NCBI GenBank assembly: GCA_010093605.1
Contig: MU004194.1
Location: forward strand, 782,323 to 846,322
Source of the DNA: Lophium mytilinum
Taxonomy: Eukaryota
Direction of reading: 5' to 3'
Length of the DNA: 64,000 bases
The stretch's first letter is position 1; each line of letters begins with the position of its first letter. The translations under genes were made by a program, and so were the position numbers. The notes under the pieces are model-generated. The model had not been told where the DNA came from and made no database searches. It saw only the letters and a list, made by a program, of their open reading frames with translations. Of the stretch, positions 14,466 to 64,000 are shown piece after piece.

Positions 14466-17400
14466 ATGCAGCCTACTCCAGATCATCTGAAGTTGCGAGT
14501 CGAGGATGTCGCAGCGACTGGAGCTATGTTCGATTCCATGAACGCTGCCGACGACGATCGCGACACTACCGTCCCGCCTGACTTTGAGGATGATCAGTTC
14601 GATGCCGATGACTATCCATCCGATGAGGAGGCTGAGACACCAAATCCTGGCTTGATGTCCAACCTCGGCGAATCTGCACCGGCCCTTGGCTCTCAACAAG
14701 ATATCGCCAAGGAGGACCGAGACGGGGAACTCCAGGAGCGGCCAGCGCGCGATTCCGAGATGCTCGATCACGACCACCAGGCCTCCAGCCAGATTACCGA
14801 GCTTCCTACCTCCCAGCATCATATCGAAGTCCCCGTTGAGTCGGAGCTCGAAGAACAACCCCATCTGGAGCGCGAACGAAGTCAGCCGGAACGCGAAGAC
14901 AGCACTCAGCAGGAAGTCGACGAACACGATGAACGGATGTTCCGGGGAAACGTTCAACGGGAGTTCCAGGAACAAACTCGGCCAGAACAAGACAGCGAGC
15001 TCCCTGTTGATACCACTGAACATGCTGCGACTACCTATGAGCTAGCGACATCTATCTCAACAGCACCCTTCGTGTCGCAAGATCAAGATGGGGATGTGAC
15101 TATGACTGAGACCACTCCGGCAGTTGAGCCTGAGAAAGCATCGGTATCTACGCCTAACCTTTTGCTGATGAGGAATATGGCTCCACCTCCACCGCGACCC
15201 TTTGGCGCAGGAACTTCCAGCTATCACCAGTACGACTCAATGCAGTACAATGGACCTGCAGCTATCAGTGAGGCTCGGGGTTCATTGTCTTCCCTGGATC
15301 TCGGAACGAGCATGCTGGGCAACCCACGCAAATCAAGTGCAAACATTCAGGCCCGAGATCTTAGGCCTTCCCTGGACCTTGGGACAAGCATGTTGAGTAC
15401 ACCTCGCAACCCAGCAGCCAATTTGTCAACGAGGGACAAGTTCATGAAAATTCAGAGAGCTGCAAAAGAGAGGGCCGCGAAGGTGAAGACTGCGAGTAGG
15501 GACTCGGGATCCATGGCTCGACAGGACACGCCTCGCTTCGATGCTACAGGAGATGTCCTTGCTAAAGAGCGTATAGACGACGAAGATGAGGATCTCTTCG
15601 CCCGTACTCGGTAATCTCTGCTACTCATCAAAATGTTCTTCTCAAGCTGACAGCTGCATCAATTAGATTCATGCAGCGCAAGGCCCAGATCGAAGAGATC
15701 AAGAGGAATCGCGATCTAAGCCTGAGCGAAGACATCGCTTGGATGAAGGCGGTGTCAGCTGAGACCGCTCGCCTGAACAAGCGCAAGGCCGACAAACTCC
15801 GAGAGCAAGAAGACATGATGTCAGGTTTCAACGACGAAGATTCGCTCTTCCTCGCAGAGTCTACGCCGCCGCGAAACGATATCGAGGAGCGATCATATAC
15901 AGGCACACAGTTCTCATGGGACAACGACAGCGGCTATGGAGATCACATGGACCCGAATGACCCAGGGTATATATATATCTTTCCCAATGGTAATGATATG
16001 TTGCTAACAAGTGCCTTTAGTGAGGGGTCCTCATCAGGACGACGTCGCCAAGCCTCTATTCCGCGGAAGACTCCGAAGCCAGACCGCCTCAAGGGCAGTA
16101 TGGAAAGCATGTTGGTCGGGTTCAAGGCCTTTGAAGATGATGGTCCGAAGAAGAAGAGACAGATGCTTGAAGCCGCCCAAGCAGCTTTGCCCAAAGGCAG
16201 AGGGAGGGCGAAGGGAAAGGCCAAAGCCACCGGCAACACCTCCACTGCCAAAAAAGGCCGCGGTGGTGCCAAAGCTGGTGGAAAGGTTGCTAAGAAGGCC
16301 AAGCCCGTGAAATACACCGGACCGAGTATGACGGATGTTGGAAGTTTGTTCACCAGCAACGTTTTCACGGACCAAGAAGGGAACGAGGACCGTTCAGACC
16401 AACCGACCTTCGACAAAGGAAGGAAAGATCAAGCCTTGAAGCAACTTATTGCAAGCGTTCCGTTGGAGCACCAAAAGTCTGCTCGCGCCGACAAAAAGGT
16501 GTTGTTAGCGGCCACGAAGGACTTCACAGGCCACGGCAGCTGCAAACCCGACAATGATGGCAAATGGCTGGTCAGGGGCATGAAGACATCGCTGAAGAGT
16601 TATCAACTTCTCGGAAGCGCTTTCATGCGCCGCCGAGAGACCGCGGCGGAGGAACCCCGTGGAGGCCTGGTAGCGGATCAAATGGGCTTGGGCAAAACAG
16701 TCATGATGTTGGCGAACATCATCAACGGAAAGCCACCAAAAGACAAGAAAGATGGTCGCGCTACCTTGATCGTGGCGAGTCCAGCTCTTGTAGAGCAATG
16801 GAAAGAAGAGATCAAAGCACATTGCCACCCATGGGCTCACGGTGCTATCATGACCTGGCGCGCTGGCAGTCGGCTCGACTCTACCGAAGCCCTAAAAGTC
16901 ATGGATTCGCATGAAATCATCCTCACTACGTACACCGATGTCATGAAATCCTACCCAAAGACGGAGCCACCAATTGAGATTACTGATCCAGAGGAAAAGC
17001 AGGCATGGTGGATGAACGAGTGGGAAGAGAAGCGAGGCCCTCTTCACCGCATGCGCTTCCTCAGGGTTGTTCTGGATGAAGCGCAAGCCATCAAGAACCA
17101 CACCGGCCGTACCTCGATAGCCTGCCGGGGCTTGATGGCTGATCACAAGTGGGCCCTCAGTGGAACGCCTGTCATGAACGGCATCACGGAGCTCTATCCA
17201 TACTTCAAGTTCCTGAACGTTCCTCATACAGGGAGTTTCAAGATCTTCAAGCACAATTACTGCAACAAGTCAGACCCGGATACAACCCAGCGGCTTCTAG
17301 TCCGGCTCAATGCATTCATGATCCGGCGCACCCACAAAGACATCATGTTCGGCGCACCGATCCTGAAGCTCCCGAAAGCTACACCGATTACTCATTGGTG

Positions 17401-18970
17401 CGAATTCAACGACATCGAGCGTAGTGTCTATGAAATTGTGAGGAAGAGATTCATTGCTCGGATCAACTCCTTTGCTGCCGCAGGCCAGCTTGAAAAGAGT
17501 TACACCAACATCTTCGTGTAAGTACTCGTCCTTTAGATCTGACACTCGATACTAATCAGTCTGTGTAGAATGCTGCTTCGACTGCGCCAGCTCACCGGCC
17601 ATATACTGACGCTTCAGCTGACCATGCAAGATCTCTTGGAGATGGAAGATATTGAGCGGTTGAAGCAGCTTACCCAATCTGAGGTGGCTGGTGAGACGGA
17701 TCGTGGACGCCAGATCGTCTCAATTCGCACTCAACTCACCGCCATGATCAAGAAAACCCGGGAAGCTGATAAGAACAAGGCCGCCCCTCGTGATTCTCCG
17801 GCTGAATCAAGCGTTCGACGCAGTCTGTCGACCGACGCCGATCTGGCGGACAAGGAGGACCAAGATGAAGATGATGAAATGGAGGAGGAGGTTTCTAACG
17901 GAGAGGTCAACATTACTACCGGCGGCGGCTTCGGCATGAGATACGAATTCCAACCATACCTCGACACGCTCACCAGTGGCAAGAGGTGGGAGGCCATCAA
18001 GGAAAAAGCCAAGTGCGCCAAATGTCACCAAACACCCATCGACCCGTGGCTCACTGCCTGTTCTCACATCTACTGCCAGGGCTGCCTCGAGGATCTCCAA
18101 CTCGAAGCAGCTACCACCGGTAGAGAGCGCGCGGTCTGCTCTCACTGCGCCCAGATGTTCAGTTACTCAGTCCCATGCAATGACGAAGACGACCGGGAGA
18201 CCCCAGGCCGCGACAGCTCCCTTGACATGACCGGCGACGAAGATTCAGGCACTAGGAACCGCGTTCGACGCTCGCGGAAGAACAAGGAAGTCAGGGCTGA
18301 TAGAGAGACCATTCCAGACGACTGGATCGACATGTGCGGAAATGCTGTGTTGCCGAGTGCCAAAACCCTTGCTATCAAGGCGCAGGTGCTGAACTGGTTG
18401 CATGAGGCACCCGACACGAAGATCATCATCTACACACAGTTCCTTGCCATCATACGCATCCTCACGAAGATCTGCCAGGAGGAGAAGTGGGCGTATTGCG
18501 AATATCACGGGAGCATGAGTCTCACCGCCAGGAGCAACACTATCAAGACCTTCGCAGAGGACCACGGCAAGAAGATTCTCCTGGCGTCGCTCAAGTGCGG
18601 CGGGCTTGGACTCAACCTGACCATGGCTTCTCGCGTCATTGTGGTTGATCCCTGGTGGAATCACGCTATCGAGCAGCAGGCCTTCTGCCGTGTCTTCCGT
18701 TATGGCCAGGAGTCGAAGACCTATATGACCCGCTTCTGTGTCCGGAACACGGTTGATGAGAAACTGATCAATATGCAGGAGCGAAAGACGGCAGAGATTG
18801 ACGAGGTTATGGAGGATGACGGCAAGACTATGAAGAAGTTGGGCATGAAGGACCTCTTGCGACTTTTTGGACCGGTCCGTGAGGCGGAGGATGGAACCCC
18901 CTTCATTTTGGTGGACGACCCTCAGAACAATGGATGCGTCGACCCAGAGTACGAGGACGAGGACCTTTGA
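14466..18970 (+). CDS. SNF2-family ATPase with embedded C3HC4 RING (Rad5/Rad16/Uls1-like)
   Basis: Introns about 15611-15666, 15967-16020 and 17518-17568. GGLVADQMGLGKT (motif I), VVLDEAQAIKN (II), WALSGTP (III), RING CAKC..CSHIYCQGC..CSHC, HelicC GGLGLNL..DPWWN..QAFCRVFRYGQ. Long acidic N-terminus. Confidence 0.92.
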
Positions 18971-39964: not shown

Positions 39965-42958
39965 TCATGTTTCCCATTCCGGATTCTAAAAATGACGTTA
40001 GCAAGAAGCTGCAAAGTATAGCGCTAGATGTGTGGAGCACTCACCTTCCGTAGGATTACCACACCCTCTAGATTGCTGCTCAGGCTGAGGTACTGCTCGT
40101 CCTCCAGCTCAGCCCGCTCCCCGTAGGCCAAGAGGACAGGCGTGCTCTGAGTTTGCCAGCCGGTGATCGTCTTCGGGCGACCTGCTTGCCCGACAATGTC
40201 CACCGCCTGACCAACACGCACGTTGACGGTCAGCGGCTTCAGGTCTTCGTCCAAGGTGATGAGGAATCTTGGTGCCATGGCAGTAACCACAAAGTAGAGG
40301 AGATAGTGCGAGTCGCCGAGAATGAATGACTTCGCATCAATCATAGACACGAGTACAGTCAGCAGCCCAGCGGCAGCAACTCGTGACAGCACCTGTCGAT
40401 CTGTGTGGAAGGGGTTGACAGACAGAGTACCTTTGCCCATGTGCAACAAACCTTGGGCGATGCGCACCATAAATAGCGCGTTGGGATCCCGGTGATAGTA
40501 GCTGGCTAGCTGTCGGAGAAGTTGTGCCAGACGAGCATTGTTGGTACCAGCACCGACAAGACCCATGGCGAAGATGGCGTTGATGGCAACATCGTTGTCG
40601 TTGTCGTGACTGTATCTAGACAAAGTGTCATAGACCTTCATCTGAGGATTACTGGGGCTAATGAGACCCATTGCGAGAGGTACAGCTTTCCGGATATTAG
40701 CCTCTCCGTAATGCATGAGATGTCCAAACGTCCGAAGAACCATTTCTTGGCCAACGTCTTCTCCCATGGCAACCAGAGACAAGCCAATGACTGCATATGA
40801 CTGTAGCAGCTCATCTCCCTTCTTCTCATCGCTATCCTCTTCAATGTGGTCGTTGCAGATATGGAGGAGTTGCTGTAGCTTCAGCACAGCTCCAGTACCC
40901 GCCCACGCGCACACTTCAGCCAATACAGATGTTGGCTTGGACATGGGATGATCGATTGCTTTCAGGGTTTCCAGAATGACATCCACCTCCTCTTGCTGCC
41001 CGAAGTACAGAAGGGCCAGCCCGAGTGCCATGAACCTAGTCCACTTGTCTTTGAGCTGCTTTGTCCGGTCCTCGTCCAAGAATGTCTGGATGATGGCTTC
41101 GGACACATCGCTCTGCGCAGATCCAACGAAGATTAGACCCAAAGATAGGGCGGCCATGGCAGAGAGCTGCATGTCGAGGTTGGTATCAGTGACGATAGGA
41201 AGTAGTCGCTCCAGAAGTTCTTCCTTGTTCGACCCTGCGTAGGCAAGACCCAGACCCATGATCGATGCTACTCGTACGTTGATATTCTTGTTGGCCAGGT
41301 TGGTGTCCTCGCCAAGTAAAGCCAGAGCGGGATCTGCATCCATCCGCACTCCAGAGTTGATTATACCTGTCGCGAGGAAAGCACCCGCCTTGATATAATC
41401 ATCGTTGTGGTCGGTATAGGGATCGATCTTATCAAGACCCATCTCTACGTCCCATTGCATGAGCATGCCCAAAGAAGCGGCTGTCGACATCATTCCCTCG
41501 TCTTTGGTTTTCCATACCCAGCTGTGTTTGTTGTCTTCCGTTAGCATTAATTTGTCATTGCCAAATCCAGCGTTGACAAAGGCATTGACGAAAGCGCTGG
41601 CAAGATTGTGCCTAGCGGAGTCGGTGTTGGTCAGGCCTGCAGTCCGACTGCTTTCAAGATGTGTCTTGTAGATGTCGTCTGGTGTTTTCGGGTCCAGTAT
41701 GTTGAGCTCTTTGGCAAGAGCTTTGAAGTGATCCGGCAGCCTCGTGTTGTTCAAACACTCTTGCAACTCTGGGTCTTCGTCCTCCGAGACATCCAACCCT
41801 ATCCGTTGGCGTGCAATAAGGAAAGCCATCTGTCGCCGGATAGACTTGTCATCTGTCGAGTTGAAGGCCTCCTCTATTAGCTCCTGGTCGTTGAGACGAA
41901 TAGCGAGCACGATCGCTTGCGTATACTGCTTATATCTTCGGTATATCTTGTATGCGGTGCGGAGGAATCGGTCGTTGTCGGGGTAGGTAAGAAGGGATAC
42001 CGTGCTAATGCCATTAGTGATTGTCGAAAGATGACCGGTAAGAATAGCGCGTACCTTATCATGTACAAGCACACCCTCGAGTAGATGTTCTCATCCAAAT
42101 GCTCCTCTATGGACTCAATCATCTCCAACTCGCTGAGGATATCGACCGCATCCGCCTCGGCGTTGTGCTTGAGGAAGAAAGGAACCAGGGTCAGTGCGAG
42201 ATCAGTGATGTCGTCTGTGGCCTTGTCATCATTCAAGCGGCTCTGGAATTCCCGGCCAATCTCGAGAGCCAGATGCCGCATATATTCGTGCCCCCAGGAG
42301 CCCAAATCTGTCGAGGGCGCCTGGAGCCTATACTTCAGGCAGTCCAACCGCTCTTCGTCCGAGTAGGTCATTCCGAGTACAGATAGCATGTCTGCAAATG
42401 AAGTCTAGCATCCCGTCAGTACACGGGCTTGATACTCTCCGTCATGTTCCGTACCTTGTTGTCTCCAGCCGGCCATGATTCGTATGCCTTCTCCAACTTC
42501 TCGTAGTGGGGCCGTAGAAATTTGAGCGGTTTGGGTACTGCGGTCATCGATGAAGTCGACGTCTTGATGAAGTTCTTGATAGCTTCCAGCGCGGGCTTGT
42601 ACAGGCTCGTGTCCGATTCCTGCAGCAACGTCGAGTAAGCTTCTGTGACCATGCGAGACATACATGCTCGCGAAACGTACCAGTATTCGCTCGACCAGCA
42701 TGTCGAGTTCGCTCTTAAGTTGTTGATCTTCCTCGCTGAGCTCTTCTGTGAAACAAATACTCGGTCAGCTTGAGCTAGAGACAAGCCCAAAAGGCCAGCG
42801 CTGGGTGCGAACATACCAGCAGGGAGACCGCCTTTCTGTCCATCCTTTATGACTTTGCCGTCCTTGTCCTTTTCTGGGCTACTTGCGCCATCAACTGTAT
42901 CTGAGGCTTTCCCCTTGCCCTTATCCACAGGTGTGGGCTTCTCATCTTCCTTCGCCAT
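39965..42958 (-). CDS. RPN1: 26S proteasome regulatory subunit Rpn1 (PSMD2)
   Basis: [22 protein letters not shown] repeats, [31 protein letters not shown]. Five introns; last exon NPEWET*. Confidence 0.97.
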
Positions 42959-49524: not shown

Positions 49525-51667
49525 TCATGACCAGACATCCTCCTGGTACTGGTTGGACGCCCTCATCGCCTTCACAATATCCTCAGCCTTGGACTCTGGC
49601 ACACCCCGCTGCTTAGAGATGATCTTCGCTAATAGCACATTGACTTCTCGTGCCATGTTAGCGGCATCACCGCAAACGTAGAAGTATGCCTTCTGCTGGA
49701 GGAGCTTGTCTAGTTCCTCGGCGTACTCCTCGATCTTGTGCTGGACGTAGACCTTCTTAGGCCCATCTCTAGAGAAAGCAACATGCAACACAAAGTTTTC
49801 GCCCAAATCCTTTTCGTATTGCTGAGACGATTATTAGCAAGCCGTTTTTCTAGATGCGCAGATTGTTTCGACTTACCTGCCACTCATTTTCATACAAGAA
49901 ATCTTCTTCCTTTCTTCTGCATCCGAAGAAAAGCACAGTCTTTCCCACGGCTTGGCCAGCGCGAGCCTGGGACGCACGTTCTTGGACGAAGGCTCTGAAC
50001 GGAGCAACGCCGGTGCCGGGGCCGACCATAATGATCGGTTTTGTGGGGTCTGACGGAAGCTTGAAGTTCGAGTGACGCACGTGGACGGGCACGTGAATGC
50101 CATCGTATTTGTTTCGCGGTCCAGTAAGAGCGTAGTTCAAGCCATGAGGATCTGGCTCGGCAGCACCGTGTTGTTTCTGTTTCAGGGCGAGGAGATAATT
50201 TGTGGTGACACCCTTCAAGATGTGTGGCGAGTTTGGCTTTGCCGAAGATTCAACCACGGCTGTTATGGAAATCTTATCCTTTTGCACCAGCGACGACGAC
50301 GAGATGGAGTAAAACCGGGGCTGGATCTTGATCAAGCCTTCGATCATCAGGGAGAATGGTACTTTGTCCCAGGCTTGTCCGTTTGAAAGTGTTTCGAGAA
50401 GCTGGGCAATGTTGAGGCTGCGATCAATGACCTTTTCGTGGAAATAGTCTTTGTCACCACCGAGCTTGGCCATCTCAGCCTTGACATCTTCGGTAGGAGC
50501 AAAGGCAGAAATCGTCGATACGAATTGACGTGATACAGGAGCGCAGATTTCCATGTGGTAGCGGATAGCGGCGTCGTAGGTCGTAGGGGCCGGGAACGGA
50601 ACCTTGGCAGTAGGATCTAGGCCCTTGACACCGATGACCATGTGGCGCTTAGATTCAAGACCGAGGATGTTGATGAAGCGGTCCACTTCTCTGCCGGCGT
50701 TGGTTGGCCAAATTGCGATATGATCGCCGGTCGTGTACGACAAATTAGAGCCAGAGATGTCAATTTCCATGTGCAAGCAGTTCCGGTCTTTCGCGGTGAA
50801 GAGTTCCTGTGATTCGGCGATTGGGGCAATGAAGGGGTTGTTGGCGTTGAACGGGCCTTTCTGGTTGCCTTCGAGATGGTTCTTGTTGGGTTCTCCCAGA
50901 TAGACCTCATCCTCGTCAGCATCCATATCTGGCTTCTCGGTAATCTCGAAAACGGGCTCGTAGACGGCCTCCCGCTCCTCCAAGCCCATCTTCTCGCAAA
51001 CATCGGCCCACATGGGTTCTTTCCAGGCCAAGAAGTCTTCCTCCATTGTTCCAGCACCGTCGTCTCCTTCGCCAGCATTTCCGAATCTCGTGGCGCCCAA
51101 GCGGATGAGGGCTTTGTCGACGTTGCGGACCATGGAATTATAGTGCTCGTAGGTGTTGTTGCCCAGACCGAAAGTAACGTACTTCAAGTGCGAAAGTGGC
51201 TTGTCCTCAGCCTGGATACCCTCACTGAAAGAAACGTCCTCGGCGCTGATGAACTCGTAGAACTCGACAGCATTATCTGTAGGCTCGCCCTCGCCATAGG
51301 TGGCTAGGACGAATACGGCGAGCTTGTCTTCGGGGAATTGGTCGAGGTTTTCGTAGTCGTAGTCCTCCAAGTCAGCGACCATGGTGCTTAGACCAAACCT
51401 CGAATGGCCTTCCTTGGCCAGTCTCGAGGCATAGTCCTCTGCGGTTCCAGTCTGACTTCCATAGAATATTATGCAGTTTTTGCCACTCTCATCCAGCTTC
51501 TCGATAATGTTTCTCGACTTGCCGGACTTGGCGGCGCCGTTCGGCACAGCAGCATTGCCATATGGATCCCCGTAGACAGCCCAGTATGTGCCTTTGGTGA
51601 AATAGGCGATGGTCCCGATGAGAAGCGCCGCGAGGACGACGATGTCTAGGGTGTCGAGCTGGGCCAT
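49525..51667 (-). CDS. cprA: NADPH-cytochrome P450 reductase
   Basis: N-terminal membrane anchor; FMN motifs FYGSQTGTAE and ATYGEGEPTDN; FAD motif RFYSISS; NADPH motif MVGPGTGVAPFR; terminal YQEDVWS. Intron 49822-49876 and a probable 5'UTR intron ending just before the ATG. Confidence 0.97.
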
Positions 51668-53140
51668 ATCTACAGTGCGGCGGTGAGCGAGGTCGAGAGG
51701 CGGGGAGAGAGGTCGGGATGGATGATGCTTACTGGAAGGACTGCGGTCGCGGAACAACAGCAGCGGCGGCGCCGGTATATTTAACAAGCGGCTTCGGAGC
51801 ACGGAAGTAGGTAGGGTCTGATACGTTGCCTTATCGTTGGCCGGAGACGTTGTCGGGCGTTGATGGAGGTGGCCGAGGAGGGTGTCCCGCAGCAGAATAA
51901 CGTTGCCGGAAGACTCAGCGAGCGTGCCGGTGGATGGCCCCTGCGGCGGTCTTGTCTTGTCACAGCGTGCACAATTATGCCGGCCGAGCTGGAGTTTTGA
52001 GGCTGCACGGAGGATCTGTTGAGGGCGGAAATCGACCTTCGCACAAGGTATCCTCGGTAGTGTGGGCGCGAGCGAGACTGTTCCGTCTTCTGCCTGGTGG
52101 CGCCACTACTTCTACCTGGTACTGCCCCCCAGCGAGTGTGGGGGACGAGGGGACTAGCCCAGCAATTGTAGTCACGGGTAACGACGACGGCTTTCACAGA
52201 GAGCTCGGGGGAGGAGGTGTGCACCTCTTCCGGCAGCGTGGGAGACTCGACGTTGTGGATCACTTGTCACGATGCAGCCACATTTCCTGCACCATGGACG
52301 GCGGAGTTGGGATGTTTCAGCGCAGTCAGCAAGTCAGATTTCACTCTGGAAACGCGTCCGGCGGAGACACAGAGGTCAGCAACGCGGCTCCAGAAGTGGC
52401 ACAGGGGACATGGAGACAGAGACAGCTGCGTCGGACTTTTCCCACTCCCAGACGGCACGCAGGGCTGAGCCATGACCGGGCGTATGGGAGTCCGTTCCAT
52501 ACCTCGTACCTGTCCCGGCATGATTTGACTGTTACAACGGACGAGGGACTAGATGTTTCCAGCTCTCCTCTGCCACATCGAGCTTCACGATTGGACCGGG
52601 CCTCTATCAGACGGGTCTTCTTGTCTTCCAACATGTACCCTTTTGGGGGAGATATCTTACCTGCCGTGAGATCATACAACGCAGCTCTAGTCAATATATA
52701 TACTGGCCCGACACCCGGCAGATGGCGGGTAGGAGGTCCAACTACATGTGTCTTGGCATCAATCTGGGTGTTGAGGAGCTAGCGGGGTACATGTCAGATG
52801 ATCTCTGAACCTTATAGCGAATCTCGGGGTAATAGAGGCTTGTAAATATCGCGTCCGGGTTTTCGTCGGCCTGCACTCCGAACCTTTTACCACCCATGTA
52901 AAACTCGAAGCTTTGGTTTCTATGGTCAGGGTTGAGGAAGGGCAAGTGAGGCCAATGAACGATGGAAGTCGAAGGGCTCCTCCGGGCGTCAGGAACTAAA
53001 CCGACACTGTGAAATGCACACTTGCTGTTCGCCCAAATAGGCTGAGTAAATGCGTGCATAAAATCTGTATAAAGCATCCTTGCGCCGGTGATAGCGCGTC
53101 AACCCCGCGCATCATTTCTCCGCCTACGACGCCTACCACA

Positions 53141-57300: not shown

Positions 57301-58067
57301 TATCAGGAGCCACTTTACGAAACCAGGAGGAATTTTGCAGTTGATAATTTGTTTTCAAAGCTTTAAGTTTGAGAAGATCGTTTTTGGTCGCGAGCTTCCG
57401 CCGATAAATTCCCCGCAGATGGAGTTCCACCTAGGCATTCATCGTGCCAATCGAATCAAGACTAGCCCGGTTTTGTGAAGGGATTTTCGGGCATACTCGG
57501 GTGCAGTCGCAGCGAGACACCACATCTCTTCTTCAGCTCTTTAGTCTGTATGTAGCTCGAACTCAAGGAACACAACTACAGCTCATACGGACATCGAATG
57601 ACTCGCGGCATACATCTGCCCGAAATCCGGGGTATATGGCGGGGAAGACCACAACTCGGCAATTACCCCGGGCACCCCCTCCCACAAAAAGTCCAAAGCC
57701 GAACTTACAGATTCTAGAGGCTCAATAGGTTAAATGACTGCCATATTTTCCCTACCAGTGTTTTCTCCTAACACCGCTTTCTTCGTTCCCTAGGCATTCT
57801 CGAATCATGTAACATCATGGTAGGTCCTAGCTGGGGCAACAGCAGTCTCACTTGCAAAAGGAATATAAAATGCCACCAAGAAGCTTGATTTGTGAATACC
57901 TTATATATGACTTCCGGTGGCCTTTGCGCCAACGCCACATAATTGACCTAAGGGAAATGCCATCATTACCGTCGTAAGCCCGCACTGATCTGAAAACAAG
58001 CAGTTCAAAGTCACTGCTTCCTCTACCCTTGATCTCCTAGATCCCCTGGATAACCGATCATCACCCA

Positions 58068-61000
58068 TTATCTAGTTCGCGGTTGCATTCCAGCTTCCCG
58101 GTTCTTTGCCACTGCAGCCTTGTGGAAGCGGTTTTTGAGATGGATTTCAAAGTTCGCCATGGGAGGTGTATAGAGCTTTCCAGGGCAGTCGACACAGCGG
58201 ATACGGGGTAGGTATGTATACAGCACACCTGGATGAGCAGGGGCAGGGAGATCTGGCTTGAGCTGCAACACTACCGACGACTTGGCATCGATTGCCGAGA
58301 AGACCATGACAGGAGCAATGTTCGAGCTGGGATATGTCTGGCGAAGCTGCTCCAACTCCGAGCACACCCATTGGGGGACAGCGGGGGGGTCTTGGTTCAT
58401 CCGAGCCCGCATGCTTCCCCACGTTTCGGGTACATCTTGTGGCCGAAAGAGATGATCTCGGACTTTAGAGAGTCGTTCCTGTCCGATAGTAGACGTCTTC
58501 TGGCCGGTAAGCAGCGCTGGGCTCTGGCGGGACGAAGAAGGTCGCGACCGTAATGGAGACGGCGAATCACTAAGAGGAACGGAAGTTTCAGGCACCTCGC
58601 GTGATGTTGCACCAGCTGAAAAGGCAGCTTTCATGTCCGGTGTCTCAGAGAAGCATGGTACACTGTGGCGATAAGCCAGTGGCTTCCGGGGCACTTGAGG
58701 TGGTGTCTGCGCAACATCTGCAATGTGATCTACAGCGAAGCCGAGAGCATCCATCCCATCCCATGGTTGGTTACTGGGATGCGCCGACAAGATGCTTTCT
58801 TCCCAACTTGAGGCAGGCTTCTGGGAACCTAGAAGACGAGAAATGCGCGGTTTCGTGGCCGAGTGCTGTGTCAACAATGACGACGGCTTATCTTGATGCA
58901 TCTGCTCCCGTGTATGTGAAGCGGGCGATAACCCTTCAGGCTTCTCGGCTGGAGCTGTGGCTTGTGGTCTGAAGTGAGCCGTCGCAGGAATTTGGAAGTC
59001 AGCAAATAGCGTTGGGCCTGTGCACCATTCCAAGTCTGCAATTACTTCAGAAGCTTCGACTGGCGCCACTTTGCGTGCTTTGGAGGGTATCATTATGCAC
59101 TCCTCCAGGCCAAATCGGATGCAATTAGTGCAGCGGCCCTGATCAACAGGTGAGCATCGCAACTATAGATATTAGTGACCGTTCTAATAAGCCGTTTGAA
59201 GTCCACAGAATCAGCACTGTCTTACCATCCGAGTTCTACAATAGCGACAGGCACCAGCCGTTCTCTTTATTCTGCGTGGCGCTGGCTCCTGCACCGAAAG
59301 CGAAAGCTGAGAGGGCTCGACAAAGGTTTCTAATGAAGATTTCTCCAAAAGGATTACGGGAGCAGTCGTAGCGATAGAAGCATCTTTCTCTGGGACATTG
59401 TGTTTTCCTTCACTCTTGATGATGTTCAGCATCTCTTCGCCCTTTAGGGCGGTAGTTAAGTTCTGATATCCTTTTGCTGTTATCAGGATATCGTCCTCGA
59501 TCCGTACACCACCCACAGGAATGTATCTCGAAAGCACTTCTTTATTAATGTACTTAGAATGTACTGGTGACGGGAGATAAAGAGTTTCGAGTGCGTATAG
59601 CGAGAAGTAGATTCCGGGCTCCACGGTGACAATCATGCCTTCTTCCAGGGCGGGACTTTGGGGGTCTGTTGGTGACAAGCAGAGTCCAGAATGGAATACC
59701 GGGAGATGATAGTTGGGGGAGTATTTGGAGCTCGCTTGGACATTATTGGGATCGAAGGTTTCGTCCTCTGATAACGACATTAGTTCCCGTTGGCCTATGT
59801 CGTGAACTTCAAGGCCAATATGGTGGCCTAGACCGTGGGGAAAGAACGCTCGAGAAGTTCCGGCGCGATAGATCTCTTCGGGTGACCCATTGTATAGGAT
59901 TCCCAAGGCCAACAAGCCACCAATGGCTATCTGATGGGCGAGGATGTGCAGATCCAGATACCTGACTCCAGGTGCTAGTCGCTTGATGCAGCAATCCTGC
60001 ATTGTCTGAACCAAGTCGTGGATTTGCTTTGCCTCCTTGGACGGCCAAGATCCTGATAACGGGAACGATCTTGTGACATCACTTGCGTAGCACTCCCACT
60101 CACAGCCTGCATCCAAGCACATCATCTGTCGGCCTTTGAGCGGTTCATCGTTCTTGATGTAGTGTAAAGTGCTTGCATTCAAACCCGATGCCGCAATTAC
60201 ATCGTATGCCTGGTGCTTAGCCCCTTCAGCAACACAGGCATCGAGAAATATGGCTTCAACCTGAGATTCATTCTTGAACTTCAAGATGTTGAGAAGCACT
60301 TCTCGGTGTGCTTTGGCCGTTATCTCGTTGGCTTTGCGGATCAGACCGATCTCATGGGCGTCCTTGATCATTCGAGCGGAGTTGATAGCCAGCTGCAGCT
60401 TCTTATGATCTACACGTGGATGCTTCTCTTGGCCCGGGACGGCAGCTTGATCCGGATGAAGGATGTATACGTCGCCCTCGTGGCTAAGCGGCCAGTTTCC
60501 GACAAAGTCCGCAACTGAGGTCGTGAAGTGAACCTCATCAACGTCATACTTATCAAAAGCTTCCGCTCGGGTAGATCCGCGGCCGTTCCAGATGACGGTC
60601 GTGGGATCAATCTTCGGAATGAAGAGTGTTAGGGTGTCCTCATCTATGTCATATGCGAGATGACAGTCCGTTTCGTTAACGCTGAGGTTTGTCAGGACGT
60701 CCAAAGAGAGTATGCTAGTGGCGGAAGAAAATAATCGCATAACATTGACCCCTAAGGATTACTGAAAGCAATTCTGTCGCGATCTAGACGTTTATATCTC
60801 AAGGAAACTAGAAGAAGGGAAAGTGGACAAGATTGTGCCTCCGAAGGCGTTAGAGTAACGGACGTAGGAAAGAAAATCCACGAGGGATGTGCATTTGTAA
60901 AATTTGCAGGTCCTGAAACTTGACAGATATCTTGATTGAACTTACCCGCTTAGATAGTAGAAGTACCGCCGCTGACGGAAAGGCTTTGGCTGGTCGCTAT

Positions 61001-61217
61001 CCTCCTCTAACTCCGTCGGCGCACCTGGAAGATAAATGAGTCCTTTTGAGACTTTGAGTTTCTGGGCAACCCTCTGTGCGTGCTGTTTGGCCGGATACTT
61101 CTCCAAGGGAGATGACGAGTCGATGTGGACCCAAAAGTCTGTGACAACCTGCTGCTCGCCCTGGAGCCTGTTATACAGCTCCGTGGCCTGAAGCTCCTGG
61201 GGCGCAGTGGAGGCCAT
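58068..61217 (-). CDS. Xaa-Pro aminopeptidase (M24B) fused to a Zn(II)2Cys6 cluster and a C-terminal CxxC-H-H zinc-finger module
   Basis: Introns 60682-60945 and 59163-59225. [46 protein letters not shown]; then [30 protein letters not shown]; then [24 protein letters not shown]. Confidence 0.88.
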
Positions 61218-63220: not shown

Positions 63221-64000
63221 TCACACCTTTCCCCAGCCAAGTTCTTTGCCTTTGCCTTGGTCCTCACCCCAGTAGGCTCTGCTACTTGAGTAAGCACCCT
63301 TCGCTTGCTCCTCTTCGAACAGAGAGCGAGCTTTCTCTGCACGATCTCTCGTGCGGATACTTAGCTCAAACGCGAAGGGTACCGGCTTTGCAATGAGCAG
63401 CGTTGTGAAGTCAAGCGTTGGATCAAGATCTTGGCTAGACTTCTTGGTCTTCACACGAATCTTTTCCAAATGTACCTCCTCTTCAGCTATGTCTGCAGCT
63501 GGCCAGGCACCAGGATAGAAAAGCTCCTCTGCCGTTTCCGGCTTTTCCAAACCAGCGTTCAACTCTTCGGCGGAGATGGTCGCATTCGCGTGGTGGCGTC
63601 GGAGACCGTCTTTCTCGTCAAGTTCTTCGGTTTCAGACAGTGAGTCGTACCCAGAGTCGCCGCATGATTCATCACTGTCATTTTCGCCCTTCTTTGCAAT
63701 GTTGAATAACCAGGCAATAGATCCAATCCCAATCAGCATGTCCTCGTCCGCAACACCCTGGCCTTGGCACACCCTGCGGCCATACCCAAACTGTGTGCAA
63801 TTTATTACTGTGGGATATTGCGTGAGCGGTTCGCGATAAGTCGGGAATTCAGGCTTGACCCAGCGCAGAGGGTTGAAGGATTCAGGGTCTGGGAACATAG
63901 CGGGGTCGCGAGATATGGCCCTAACGTCGGTTAGCGATCGACCAATGATGACAGCACCAGGCTAACGTCAACGTCTGCTTACCATTCGAGTGGATGCATC
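63221..64000 (-). CDS. Cytochrome P450, 3' part (runs off the window)
   Basis: WAISRDP..FPDPESFNPLRW (PERF-like) and heme motif FGYGRRVCQG; intron 63921-63982. Confidence 0.93.

Follow-up and report, generated by a model that had tools for sequence, protein, structure and literature searches.

An apparently active-site-complete prolidase joined in one gene to a putative Zn2Cys6 cluster and a Snf5-type finger in a Dothideomycetes fungus

Does a fungus encode an intact peptidase that is covalently joined, within one protein, to a zinc cluster of the DNA-binding type? The question is raised by a minus-strand locus of Lophium, a member of the Dothideomycetes, a large fungal class with many plant pathogens. 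The locus lies in a 64-kb stretch of DNA (hereafter the window, analysed at its full length), for which an earlier note had proposed a peptidase-zinc cluster chimera, possibly derived from a recent fusion of two adjacent genes. To our knowledge, DNA-binding enzyme-regulators are well known in bacteria and rare in eukaryotes, above all those in which a DNA-binding domain is covalently attached to a catalytically intact enzyme. Among literature titles and the beginnings of abstracts, no description of a fusion between an M24 peptidase and a zinc cluster was found. We report that the chimera stands, with one open frame, one spliced contig and intact catalytic ligands, and that the architecture of enzyme plus zinc cluster is real, conserved and unannotated.

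Gene structure and transcripts

The three exons (Table 1) form a single frame of 940 aa with no internal stops. The 63-nt intron proposed from its GTAAGA, CTAAT and TAG signals is seen spliced out in two sets of contigs. The first record of set X1 (2649 nt, depth 93, no mismatches) joins 58000-59162 to 59226-60682 and runs from the peptidase exon through the zinc cluster to the 3' end, with more than 1000 letters on either side of 59162/59226. Set X2, from another, related organism (~95% identical), has the identical joint, whose shorter side measures 32 letters. Intron 2 is covered by no X1 contig, since the bin depths of 44.5 and 89.1 match the covered fractions multiplied by 93.3. Its retention would stop the frame after VRQC, at aa 581. 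X1 carries the label 'RNA?', a guess, and was taken for RNA-derived on the sole ground that both introns are missing from its contigs.

The joint across intron 1 (60681/60946) is present at a depth of 99 in X1 and of 7 in X2, with a shorter side of merely 29-30 letters in both, and one X1 contig (depth 10.5) retains the intron. This joint is backed by the AMP_N profile, which runs on across it (4-47 in exon 1, 49-111 in exon 2). The N-terminus encoded by exon 1 is collinear with that of Mytilinidion resinicola (P0237), and contig 4 of X1 spans the exon. Splicing of the dominant transcript brings all parts into one frame; contigs of this kind could merge overlapping transcripts, and they do not decide on single RNA molecules across the whole gene or on an internal start site.

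Table 1. Features of the locus; positions are those of the window
Feature	Positions	Strand	Details
Exon 1	60946..61217	-	ATG at 61215-61217 and first 90 2/3 codons; start of AMP_N
Intron 1	60682..60945	-	264 nt, GTAAGT...CAG
Exon 2	59226..60681	-	remaining AMP_N, Peptidase_M24, ~50-aa linker with basic patch, first half-cluster
Peptidase_M24 (pita-bread) domain	59475..60344	-	Pfam match, aa 112-401 of P0001; ligands D281, D292, H377, E445, E486 (spliced-protein numbering)
LDAG	60105-60116	-	metal-ligand motif
SDVTR	60069-60083	-	metal-ligand motif
PHGLGH	59823-59840	-	metal-ligand motif
VEPG	59613-59624	-	metal-ligand motif
RIEDD	59490-59504	-	metal-ligand motif
Basic patch RRIKR	59262..59276	-	immediately before the cluster
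First half-cluster CRYCRTRM	59226..59249	-	end of exon 2
Intron 2	59163..59225	-	63 nt, phase 0, GTAAGA...CTAAT...TAG, splits the zinc cluster
Exon 3	58068..59162	-	opens with the second half-cluster
Second half-cluster	59097..59162	-	22 residues, start of exon 3
Low-complexity linker	58401..59096	-	short conserved motifs inside
GPTLFADF	58995-59018	-	linker motif
WDGMDALGF	58737-58763	-	linker motif
13-residue motif	58653-58691	-	linker motif
C-terminal domain	58098..58400	-	~100 aa, C-x2-C...H-x5-H zinc-finger core
Stop codon TAA	58068..58070	-	sequence

The peptidase

AMP_N (PF05195) was matched in exon 1 (35.9 bits) and in exon 2 (40.5 bits; cut-off 24.6), and Peptidase_M24 (PF00557) with 171.9 bits (E 1.9e-50, profile positions 2-208 of 208). 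Among solved structures the peptidase comes closest to human prolidases (E 3.7e-54). All five motifs that had been read as intact metal-ligand sites were found in place: LDAG, SDVT, HGLGH, VEPG and RIEDD align with the corresponding motifs of human prolidase 5mc0_A, and we take them to supply the dinuclear-metal ligands Asp, Asp, His, Glu and Glu. Across the 97 long-tailed homologues these ligands are retained throughout, apart from a single gap in the column of the second Asp, and two of the five ligand columns are conserved through the selection of the rows itself; the two substrate-side His are kept both in the Lophium protein and in all 97. In the peptidase tree, from which P0289 and P0295 were left out (their peptidase end was not matched by the search expression), the Lophium sequence sits on short branches, 95% identical to Mytilinidion, and the topology follows the expected species groups. 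The domain apparently has a complete catalytic site and would be a working peptidase of the M24B prolidase type, with Xaa-Pro hydrolysis as its probable activity.

The zinc cluster

As the earlier note had read it, the frame stays open past the catalytic domain and runs into RRIKR and CRYCRTRM; a stop in the linker was looked for and none is present, nor is there an in-frame ATG between the C-terminal MLNII of the enzyme and the cluster. Exon 3 has its first Met downstream of the cluster. In the spliced product the predicted pattern C-x2-C-x6-C-x7-C-x2-C-x7-C is indeed present behind the basic patch, at aa 569-598. Zn2Cys6 domains follow the consensus C-x2-C-x6-C-x5-12-C-x2-C-x6-8-C (PF00172), which this six-Cys spacing fits. 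The same Cys regular expression, run over all six reading frames of the window, matched nowhere else, so the spacing of the cluster is not a common chance pattern. RRIKR might serve for nuclear import or contact DNA.

The cluster is atypical. Of the basic residues that contact DNA between the second and third Cys of such clusters, three Arg are present, but Met stands for the usual Lys three residues past the second Cys, where Mytilinidion, Delitschia and P0240 have Lys; the fourth Cys lacks a preceding Pro. On relatives, Pfam Zn_clus reached 19.3 bits (P0177) and 20.5 bits (P0240), below the cut-off of 21, and was the sole family matching their cluster region; it gave no match on P0130 from Delitschia. 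The two clusters of P0240 were folded alone, in a single-sequence model with a pLDDT of just 55, and Foldseek, with a limit of E 10, returned 24 matches from the PDB, with E values of 0.12 or worse. Among the matches listed (17 of the 24), all 17 are Zn2Cys6 DNA-binding domains, with AlcR (probability 0.96), Put3, Pho7, Gal4, Leu3, Hap1, Lac9, Ppr1 and Cep3 among those named, and the score is driven in part by the shared Cys pattern itself. No coiled coil was evident by eye after the cluster. To judge by its cysteines, the cluster is most probably a divergent Zn2Cys6-type module some 50 aa past the enzyme; it may bind DNA, as in the tethering to DNA or chromatin that the earlier note proposed, and the protein may be located in the nucleus.

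The tail and its C-terminal domain

The tail between the cluster and the C-terminal domain is disordered. Apart from its motifs and that domain it evolves fast; phmmer with exon 3 gave no match at E 0.01 against 107 long homologues, and blastp against the long homologues yielded short motif matches only. One motif, GP[ST]LF..F, occurs in 44 of 105 long-tailed homologues, and another, LAYRH, in P0177, P0240 and the metagenome contig L003. No Pfam family was matched in exon 3 at E up to 1, so there is no zf-U1 or zf-met match, and neither Fungal_trans nor any other activation or regulatory domain was detected there.

The last ~100 aa form a third module. Across 44 sequences its C79, C82, H97 and H103 hardly vary (at least 90% conserved), and a search with the domain reached 118 cluster representatives with E values of 0.001 or lower. 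It is 46% identical to the C-terminus of Zymoseptoria Snf5; a SNF5 domain is carried by 10 of the 29 proteins scanned and by all nine of the 'longer' search matches. The domain also travels with Zn_clus, BRCT and bromodomain proteins, and in P0045 it accompanies several Zn2Cys6-type clusters. Between Lophium and X2, the seven listed differences in aa 832-932 are all synonymous. The domain was modelled with a pLDDT of 89.7, and Foldseek found nothing for it in the PDB at E up to 0.001. VIA-align pointed to fingers of the U1/matrin type (TUT4, SF3A2-like, Prp11, TUT1, ZFa, JAZ and U1C) at Z 3.5-4.8, values within the chance range (Z<5), and the protein-atlas leads zf-BED, zf-C2H2_12 and AKAP95 all scored below 0.9. 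We know of no described function for this domain in Snf5. According to the model, the C2H2 domain common to Snf5 C-termini would be an undescribed domain that folds confidently, and as a third module it strengthens the nuclear reading of the protein.

Distribution and age of the fusion

The fusion is not confined to Lophium. The peptidase of L003 is 62% identical, and this contig has the matching layout, including the C-terminal domain: half a cluster, then, at the same codon, an intron of 58 nt (GT..AG), followed by the second half and a 20-residue stretch. Layout and intron at the same cluster codon are shared by L003, Mytilinidion, Glonium and two further relatives. Half a cluster before the intron is present in L003 and in four gene models (P0237, P0238, P0239 and P0274), which read from it into the intron through a V codon (GTN). 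Among these is the model of Mytilinidion resinicola, P0237 (91% identical), and the public models P0237 (605 aa), P0238 (531 aa) and P0239 (666 aa) all end after the peptidase. Whole clusters behind the peptidase were identified in Delitschia P0130, in Coniosporium and in the transcript-derived P0240, with P0177 likewise listed. The signature R-C-[ST]-x-C-x-R-F is common to the second half-cluster of Lophium, to P0130 and to P0240, and the latter is an 828-aa uninterrupted product of a 3378-nt contig that holds peptidase and clusters together.

This distribution bears out the conservation of the fusion and speaks against the part of the earlier note that had allowed for a recent joining of adjacent genes: the comparison of layouts, together with a tree that follows species groups, suggests an old fusion conserved across distant Dothideomycetes. 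Most Pleosporales keep the enzyme and the tail, with persistent GPSLF/APGI motifs, and are missing the cluster. The same holds for L001/L002, an uninterrupted genomic ORF, so a large clade can do without the cluster. The peptidases of L006 and L008 stop ~30 aa after RIED and are of the stand-alone type. The metagenome scan gave 80 loci, of which five were examined (L001, L002, L003, L006 and L008); the rest are L007, at 39% identity, and 74 others at 24-31%.

Three sequences caught by the half-cluster expression (P0185, P0190 and P0216) were dropped as unrelated, their CxxCRxCR end having no following V. P0277 from Westerdykella, with CLRCRVYR followed by A, is an ambiguous half-cluster candidate.

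The cluster is cut by a small intron, and the fusion was therefore missed in genome annotation. The error is systematic: the models of Mytilinidion, Glonium and others stop inside the cluster-splitting intron, which leaves the architecture invisible in domain databases.

Interpretation and alternatives

The best explanation, to which we give a probability of roughly 55% with its proposed mechanism included, is one gene, in a Dothideomycetes fungus near Mytilinidion, for a three-part 940-aa protein made of an active-site-complete prolidase, the cluster and the C2H2 domain. The enzyme domain would stay catalytically competent. Gal4-type clusters usually dimerise through a coiled coil; prolidases are homodimers, as in human prolidase structures, and the enzyme dimer would thus supply the dimerisation in place of a coiled coil. 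With its two clusters held on flexible arms of 50 aa, the dimer could contact paired DNA half-sites, and the C-terminal finger and the short motifs would make contact with nucleic acid or with partners in chromatin and transcription. Such a protein might act as a trigger enzyme, a regulator in which the enzyme domain detects or uses up Xaa-Pro dipeptides, or else as a prolidase targeted to the nucleus. The retention of the cluster and the Snf5-type finger together with a complete-active-site prolidase across ~60% identical lineages argues for a selected function, and the protein is a testable candidate for a direct link between gene regulation and the metabolism of dipeptides or proline.

The trigger-enzyme version taken by itself is unlikely. 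Occupancy or turnover of the active site of a prolidase dimer with two clusters, by Xaa-Pro dipeptides or proline, would alter promoter engagement by the clusters and the Snf5-type finger. Were it true, transcription or chromatin remodelling would respond directly to the supply of peptides and proline. Annotated models from Xylariales and Hypocreales have a Zn_clus/Fungal_trans factor joined to a related peptidase in the reverse order; under the trigger-enzyme version, these would represent a second, independent joining of both functions.

A less likely alternative accepts the fusion as real but gives the tail no role as a regulator with sequence-specific DNA binding: in this view the Cys cluster would be a small structural zinc module, and the tail would serve localisation, RNA/RNP binding or docking of a housekeeping prolidase. 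The loss of the cluster in most Pleosporales, where tail and motifs persist, would fit this, as would the sub-threshold Zn_clus scores in relatives, the RNA-duplex-binding fingers that come closest in structure to the C-terminal domain, and the lack of Fungal_trans or other activation or regulatory domains in exon 3. Against it, lineages whose peptidases are only 62% identical retain six Cys in the same spacing, the basic patch ahead of them and the position of the intron, the PDB matches listed for the P0240 clusters (17 of 24) are without exception Zn2Cys6 DNA-binding domains, and the C-terminal domain keeps company with Snf5, Zn_clus, BRCT and bromodomain proteins.

That the peptidase domain is catalytically dead, serving for ligand sensing or as a scaffold like Ebp1, Spt16 and Arx1 in what would be merely a transcription or chromatin factor, is very unlikely. 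Pita-bread folds have been reused elsewhere without catalysis, but ligand loss, the hallmark of pseudo-peptidases, was looked for and is absent; the conservation of the ligands and the substrate-side His among the long-tailed homologues, and the short branches with 95% identity to Mytilinidion, speak against a dead enzyme. Two separate genes, or an artefact of read-through transcription, assembly error or contig chimerism, are largely refuted and scarcely credible: short-read contigs may merge overlapping transcripts and the closest relatives' public models end after the peptidase, yet those models end by translating the intron, the first three cysteines share the exon and frame of the peptidase with no stop between the parts and no ATG for a separate cluster-bearing product, X1 matches without mismatch, X2 and L003 independently have the same structure, and P0240 unites peptidase and clusters in one product.

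Comparison with known systems

With stand-alone prolidases of family M24B in MEROPS (human PEPD, the fungal 'Probable Xaa-Pro aminopeptidase pepP' type) the Lophium protein has AMP_N, Peptidase_M24 and the five ligands in common. Those enzymes measure ~450-500 aa, and orthologues from Eurotiomycetes and lichen fungi end 32-52 aa after RIED, whereas in Lophium a tail of 425 aa that bears two zinc modules is added. Gal4-type Zn2Cys6 factors (Gal4, Put3, AlcR, Hap1, Leu3 and Pho7) have the same canonical six-Cys spacing after a basic patch, but usually carry the cluster at the N-terminus, whereas the Lophium cluster is internal, behind an enzyme. The Lophium protein further differs from them in its lack of Fungal_trans and of a coiled coil visible by eye, in the Met for Lys and in the sub-cut-off Pfam scores of its relatives. 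The Snf5 C-terminus of Pezizomycotina has the same near-invariant C, C, H and H positions (46% identity in Zymoseptoria); the Lophium protein lacks the SNF5 domain, and no Pfam model covers the shared C-terminal domain.

Pita-bread proteins of chromatin and ribosome biology, namely the N-terminal domain of Spt16, Ebp1/PA2G4 and Arx1, have lost their metal ligands. They illustrate the M24 fold in nuclear or nucleic-acid-associated proteins; the Lophium protein keeps all five ligands and is therefore not to be filed with these inactive regulators. Possible functional parallels come from the DNA-binding trigger enzymes of bacteria, PutA, a proline dehydrogenase with a ribbon-helix-helix domain, and PepA, aminopeptidase A. 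Their folds and DNA-binding domains are different and their hosts are bacteria, not fungi. The likeness to the Lophium protein would lie in an active metabolic or peptidase enzyme that is physically attached to a DNA-binding regulator or acts as one itself, in the case of PutA likewise a proline-related one.

Structure of the gene and its transcripts

One conserved gene on the minus strand of the window encodes, in a single frame, an intact prolidase-type domain, a Zn2Cys6-type cluster and a Snf5-type C2H2 domain. Its structure is of fungal type, and the three exons joined by script gave 2823 nt and 940 aa with zero internal stops. Past the catalytic domain the frame stays open through RRIKR (aa 560-564) into half a cysteine cluster, CRYCRTRM (aa 569-576), as the earlier note had claimed. 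Exon 3 opens with [22 protein letters not shown] (aa 577-598), completing the cluster with the spacing C-x2-C-x6-C-x7-C-x2-C-x7-C directly behind a basic patch, both of which had been proposed and are present in the spliced translation. The cluster expression found no second match in the six-frame translation of the window. No in-frame stop codon separates enzyme and cluster, the stretch from MLNII at the enzyme's C-terminus to the cluster has no in-frame ATG, and exon 3 has its first Met downstream of the cluster; with intron 2 retained, the frame stops five codons into the intron. The neighbouring genes are of unrelated housekeeping types (NUDIX, SNF2/RING helicase, OTU, Rpn1, P450 reductase-like, P450 fragment), and no link of the P450 reductase-type, P450, SNF2/RING or Rpn1 genes to the fusion gene is evident in the window.

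Exons and introns of the fusion gene, and neighbouring genes, in window coordinates
Feature	Position	Strand	Signals or basis
Exon 1	61217-60946	-	ATG at 61215-61217
Intron 1	60945-60682, 264 nt	-	GTAAGT...CAG
Exon 2	60681-59226	-	sequence
Intron 2	59225-59163, 63 nt	-	GTAAGA...CTAAT...TAG
Exon 3	from 59162 to stop TAA at 58068-58070	-	sequence
SNF2/RING/Helicase_C protein	15590-18970	+	domain match
Rpn1	40024-42090	-	domain match
Flavodoxin/FAD_binding_1/NAD_binding_1 (P450 reductase type)	49850-52105	-	domain match
P450 C-terminal piece	63221-63961	-	domain match

Two sequencing runs, X1 and X2, are not on record as RNA; both contain the stretch, with contigs without the introns. X1 contains 97% of the sampled words with 0 mismatches, and X2 derives from another organism, most pieces being 95-99% alike to the window. 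One X1 contig (2649 nt, depth 93) joins 58000-59162 directly to 59226-60682, omitting 63 nt with CT..AC ends on the plus strand and hence GT..AG on the gene's strand. Intron 2 is covered by no X1 contig, the flanking bin depths of 44.5 and 89.1 being accounted for by partial coverage at 93.3. X2 has the identical joint (depth 3, 32 letters on the shorter side), and its loose end at 59163 continues into the end of exon 2. The in-frame union of both cluster halves foreseen from the sequence is thus borne out by the 940-aa frame, the 63-nt intron and contigs of both runs crossing 59226/59162. The intron 1 joint (60681/60946) was seen in both runs with only 29-30 letters on its shorter side (bar, 31); it is also backed by the AMP_N profile, where the exon 1 match ends at position 47 and the exon 2 match starts at 49, and by P0237 of Mytilinidion resinicola, which is collinear. 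An X1 contig containing intron 1 (60653-60975; depth 10.5 versus about 93-99 spliced) may represent intron retention or pre-mRNA; unlike intron 1, intron 2 is retained in no X1 contig. The dominant RNA is spliced so that all parts share one frame, contigs being no proof of single RNA molecules and still compatible with an internal start.

Among the 40 of 117 X2 differences displayed, to which these counts are confined, 36 fall in the coding sequence (21 synonymous, 15 nonsynonymous), and all seven in aa 832-932 are synonymous. Only two indels are listed, at 58043 and 61220, and none lies within the coding sequence; the linker (59230-59430), where the earlier note had considered a stop or indel, has no stop in the window. 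At 58085 (aa 936) X2 carries a plus-strand G-to-A change, CAA to TAA, with which its protein would end five residues early, past the conserved domain.

The peptidase domain

Pfam matched both AMP_N and Peptidase_M24 (171.9 bits, E 1.9e-50), the pair anticipated for this half. The nearest solved structures are human prolidases (5mc0_A, E 3.7e-54), with E. coli aminopeptidase P behind them (E about 5e-38). Alignment with 5mc0_A retains both Asp, the His and both Glu of the dimetal site, which we take to bind the two metal ions, together with the His of LHY and the His of VHD. All five motifs named earlier stand in their places in the window and, as aligned with human prolidase, appear intact. 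The ligand columns of 195 aligned homologues hold D 195, D 192, H 195, E 195 and E 195, and those of the 97 rows with a tail of at least 200 aa hold 97, 96 (one gap), 97, 97 and 97; both Glu columns were fixed by row selection. With its M. resinicola counterpart the peptidase shares 95% identity; it sits on short branches in the tree, and nothing here points to a dead enzyme.

The cluster and its age

The cysteine spacing fits the Zn2Cys6 consensus, and Zn_clus is the sole Pfam family matching the cluster region in relatives, scoring 19.3 in P0177 (Coniosporium uncinatum) and 20.5 in P0240 against a 21-bit cut-off, with no match in P0130 (Delitschia confertaspora). P0177 and P0130 carry a whole cluster directly after the peptidase; P0240, an 828-aa product, carries two in tandem, and is transcript-like since it is uninterrupted from a 3378-nt contig. 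A 112-aa piece of P0240 with both clusters was folded without alignment; the model was poor (pLDDT 55) and had a short helix behind each C-x2-C. A Foldseek search with this low-confidence model yielded 24 PDB matches at E up to 10, and all 17 displayed are Zn2Cys6 DNA-binding domains (AlcR, E 0.12, probability 0.96; Put3, Pho7, Gal4, Leu3, Hap1, Lac9, Ppr1 and Cep3), a score to which the Cys pattern itself contributes. In our reading the window cluster belongs to the Zn2Cys6 family as a divergent member, or is closely akin to it.

The closest public protein, P0237 (605 aa, 91% identical over exon 2), ends in ...ACRYCRTRK plus 29 residues starting with V; its gene model reads into the intron inside the cluster. 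Half clusters followed by V also occur in P0238 (CRYCHSRM), Glonium stellatum P0239 (CTACRKRM) and P0274 (CEYCRVHR). Because these four models translate the small intron, databases show the peptidase only. At the DNA level, the frame of metagenome locus L003, with a peptidase 62% identical to the window's, extends to CTPCKKRM and is interrupted, at the codon where intron 2 lies in the window, by a 58-nt intron (GTACGT...CTAAC...CAG); NRC...C..C.......[21 protein letters not shown] follows, and then a C-terminal domain closely resembling that of the window protein. Of 417 aligned tail positions 185 are identical, with identities densest in the last ~110 aa.

Our survey comprised 228 rows (the window, 107 'longer' and 120 listed 'near' matches), 203 with a recognisable peptidase end. 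After RIED, the last metal-ligand motif, 102 rows have at least 200 aa, 30 have 60-199 and 71 fewer than 60, and in 10 of the 203 a full Cys motif lies at some point downstream of the peptidase; as the set is partly length-selected, these counts are not frequencies. From the 228 rows 66 were picked and 2 of these skipped; in a quick maximum-likelihood tree of the remaining 64 peptidase domains the window groups with Mytilinidion (support 98) and P0238 (99), inside a 33-row clade (98) with Glonium, P0240, Delitschia and Pleosporales. Orthologues from Eurotiomycetes and lichen fungi stop 32-52 aa after RIED. The tree matches the expected species groups, pointing to orthologues and an old fusion. 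A recent fusion of two adjacent genes, as once proposed, is at odds with this tree and with the same-codon intron of L003. Conservation in relatives is supported by the layout of L003 and the whole clusters of P0130, P0177 and P0240. Judged from these comparisons, the fusion of enzyme and cluster is old and conserved.

Some tails carry further elements. The 613-aa tail of P0130 has several LLEQQNKKRL-like motif copies (by eye), with none in the window protein, and P0177 has an SCA7 zinc-binding domain (aa 676-731, 60.1 bits), a SAGA-complex type module. Eight models of 1429-1582 aa from Paramyrothecium, Mariannaea, Fusarium and Hypoxylon (P0188, P0191, P0192, P0197-P0199, P0201, P0203) show the opposite order, N-terminal Zn_clus and Fungal_trans with a related C-terminal AMP_N/Peptidase_M24 (41-46% identical); they reflect either the merging of neighbouring genes or a fusion that arose independently.

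The cluster is missing from about 40 Pleosporales proteins (54-67% identical), whose tails span 330-800 aa. Shared by these tails, counted from RIED, are APGI near +60 and DFEPF.GPSLF near +97; GPTLFADF stands at +141 in the window and GPTLFDNF at +160 in Delitschia. The common GP[ST]LF motif at differing offsets indicates homologous tails, the cluster being part of an extra stretch. Metagenome loci L001 and L002 show the Pleosporales form in a single uninterrupted 453-aa genomic frame after RIED, so the absence is not a modelling error. Four Pleosporales long forms (P0140, P0147, P0172 and P0178, of Corynespora, Massariosphaeria, Polyplosphaeria and Amniculicola) have no peptidase-adjacent cluster, and carry a six-Cys motif at +292 to +474 that is not called by Pfam.

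The C-terminal domain

Residues 255-355 of exon 3 (protein aa 832-932) matched 118 cluster representatives at E up to 0.001. All nine matches of the 'longer' search are SNF5-domain proteins, and identity to the C-terminus of Zymoseptoria Snf5 is 46%. The domain scan covered 29 matches: SNF5 was found in 10, no domain in 9, and in others Zn_clus (P0045), BRCT, ankyrin or a bromodomain, the last probably a merged model; three had sub-threshold PHD, Myb or KH. In P0045 (400 aa) a single copy of the domain is flanked by several Zn2Cys6-type clusters. P0016 (1010 aa) matches the finger in 12 stretches and is thus a repeat protein. No Pfam model covers the domain. Across 44 aligned sequences, C, C, H and H are near-invariant, in the pattern C-x2-C...H-x5-H. 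The AlphaFold model is confident (pLDDT 89.7, pTM 0.77); Foldseek found no match in the PDB, and the best VIA-align rows are U1/matrin-type fingers (TUT4, an SF3A2-like chain, Prp11, TUT1, ZFa, JAZ, U1C), alike in kind at a weak score (Z 3.5-4.8).

Possible function

Prolidases are dimers. An enzyme dimer could position two clusters on flexible arms, by which paired DNA sites would be bound, and the tail motifs and finger may engage nuclear partners or nucleic acid. The protein might then act either as a nuclear prolidase or as a gene regulator that responds to Xaa-Pro dipeptides or proline. The chief rival explanation is a non-DNA role of the tail, favoured by the cluster loss in Pleosporales. 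No description of a fusion of an M24 peptidase with a zinc cluster was found in the literature, as judged from listings; on the sequences compared here, the domain architecture is new, real and conserved, and its function a predicted one.
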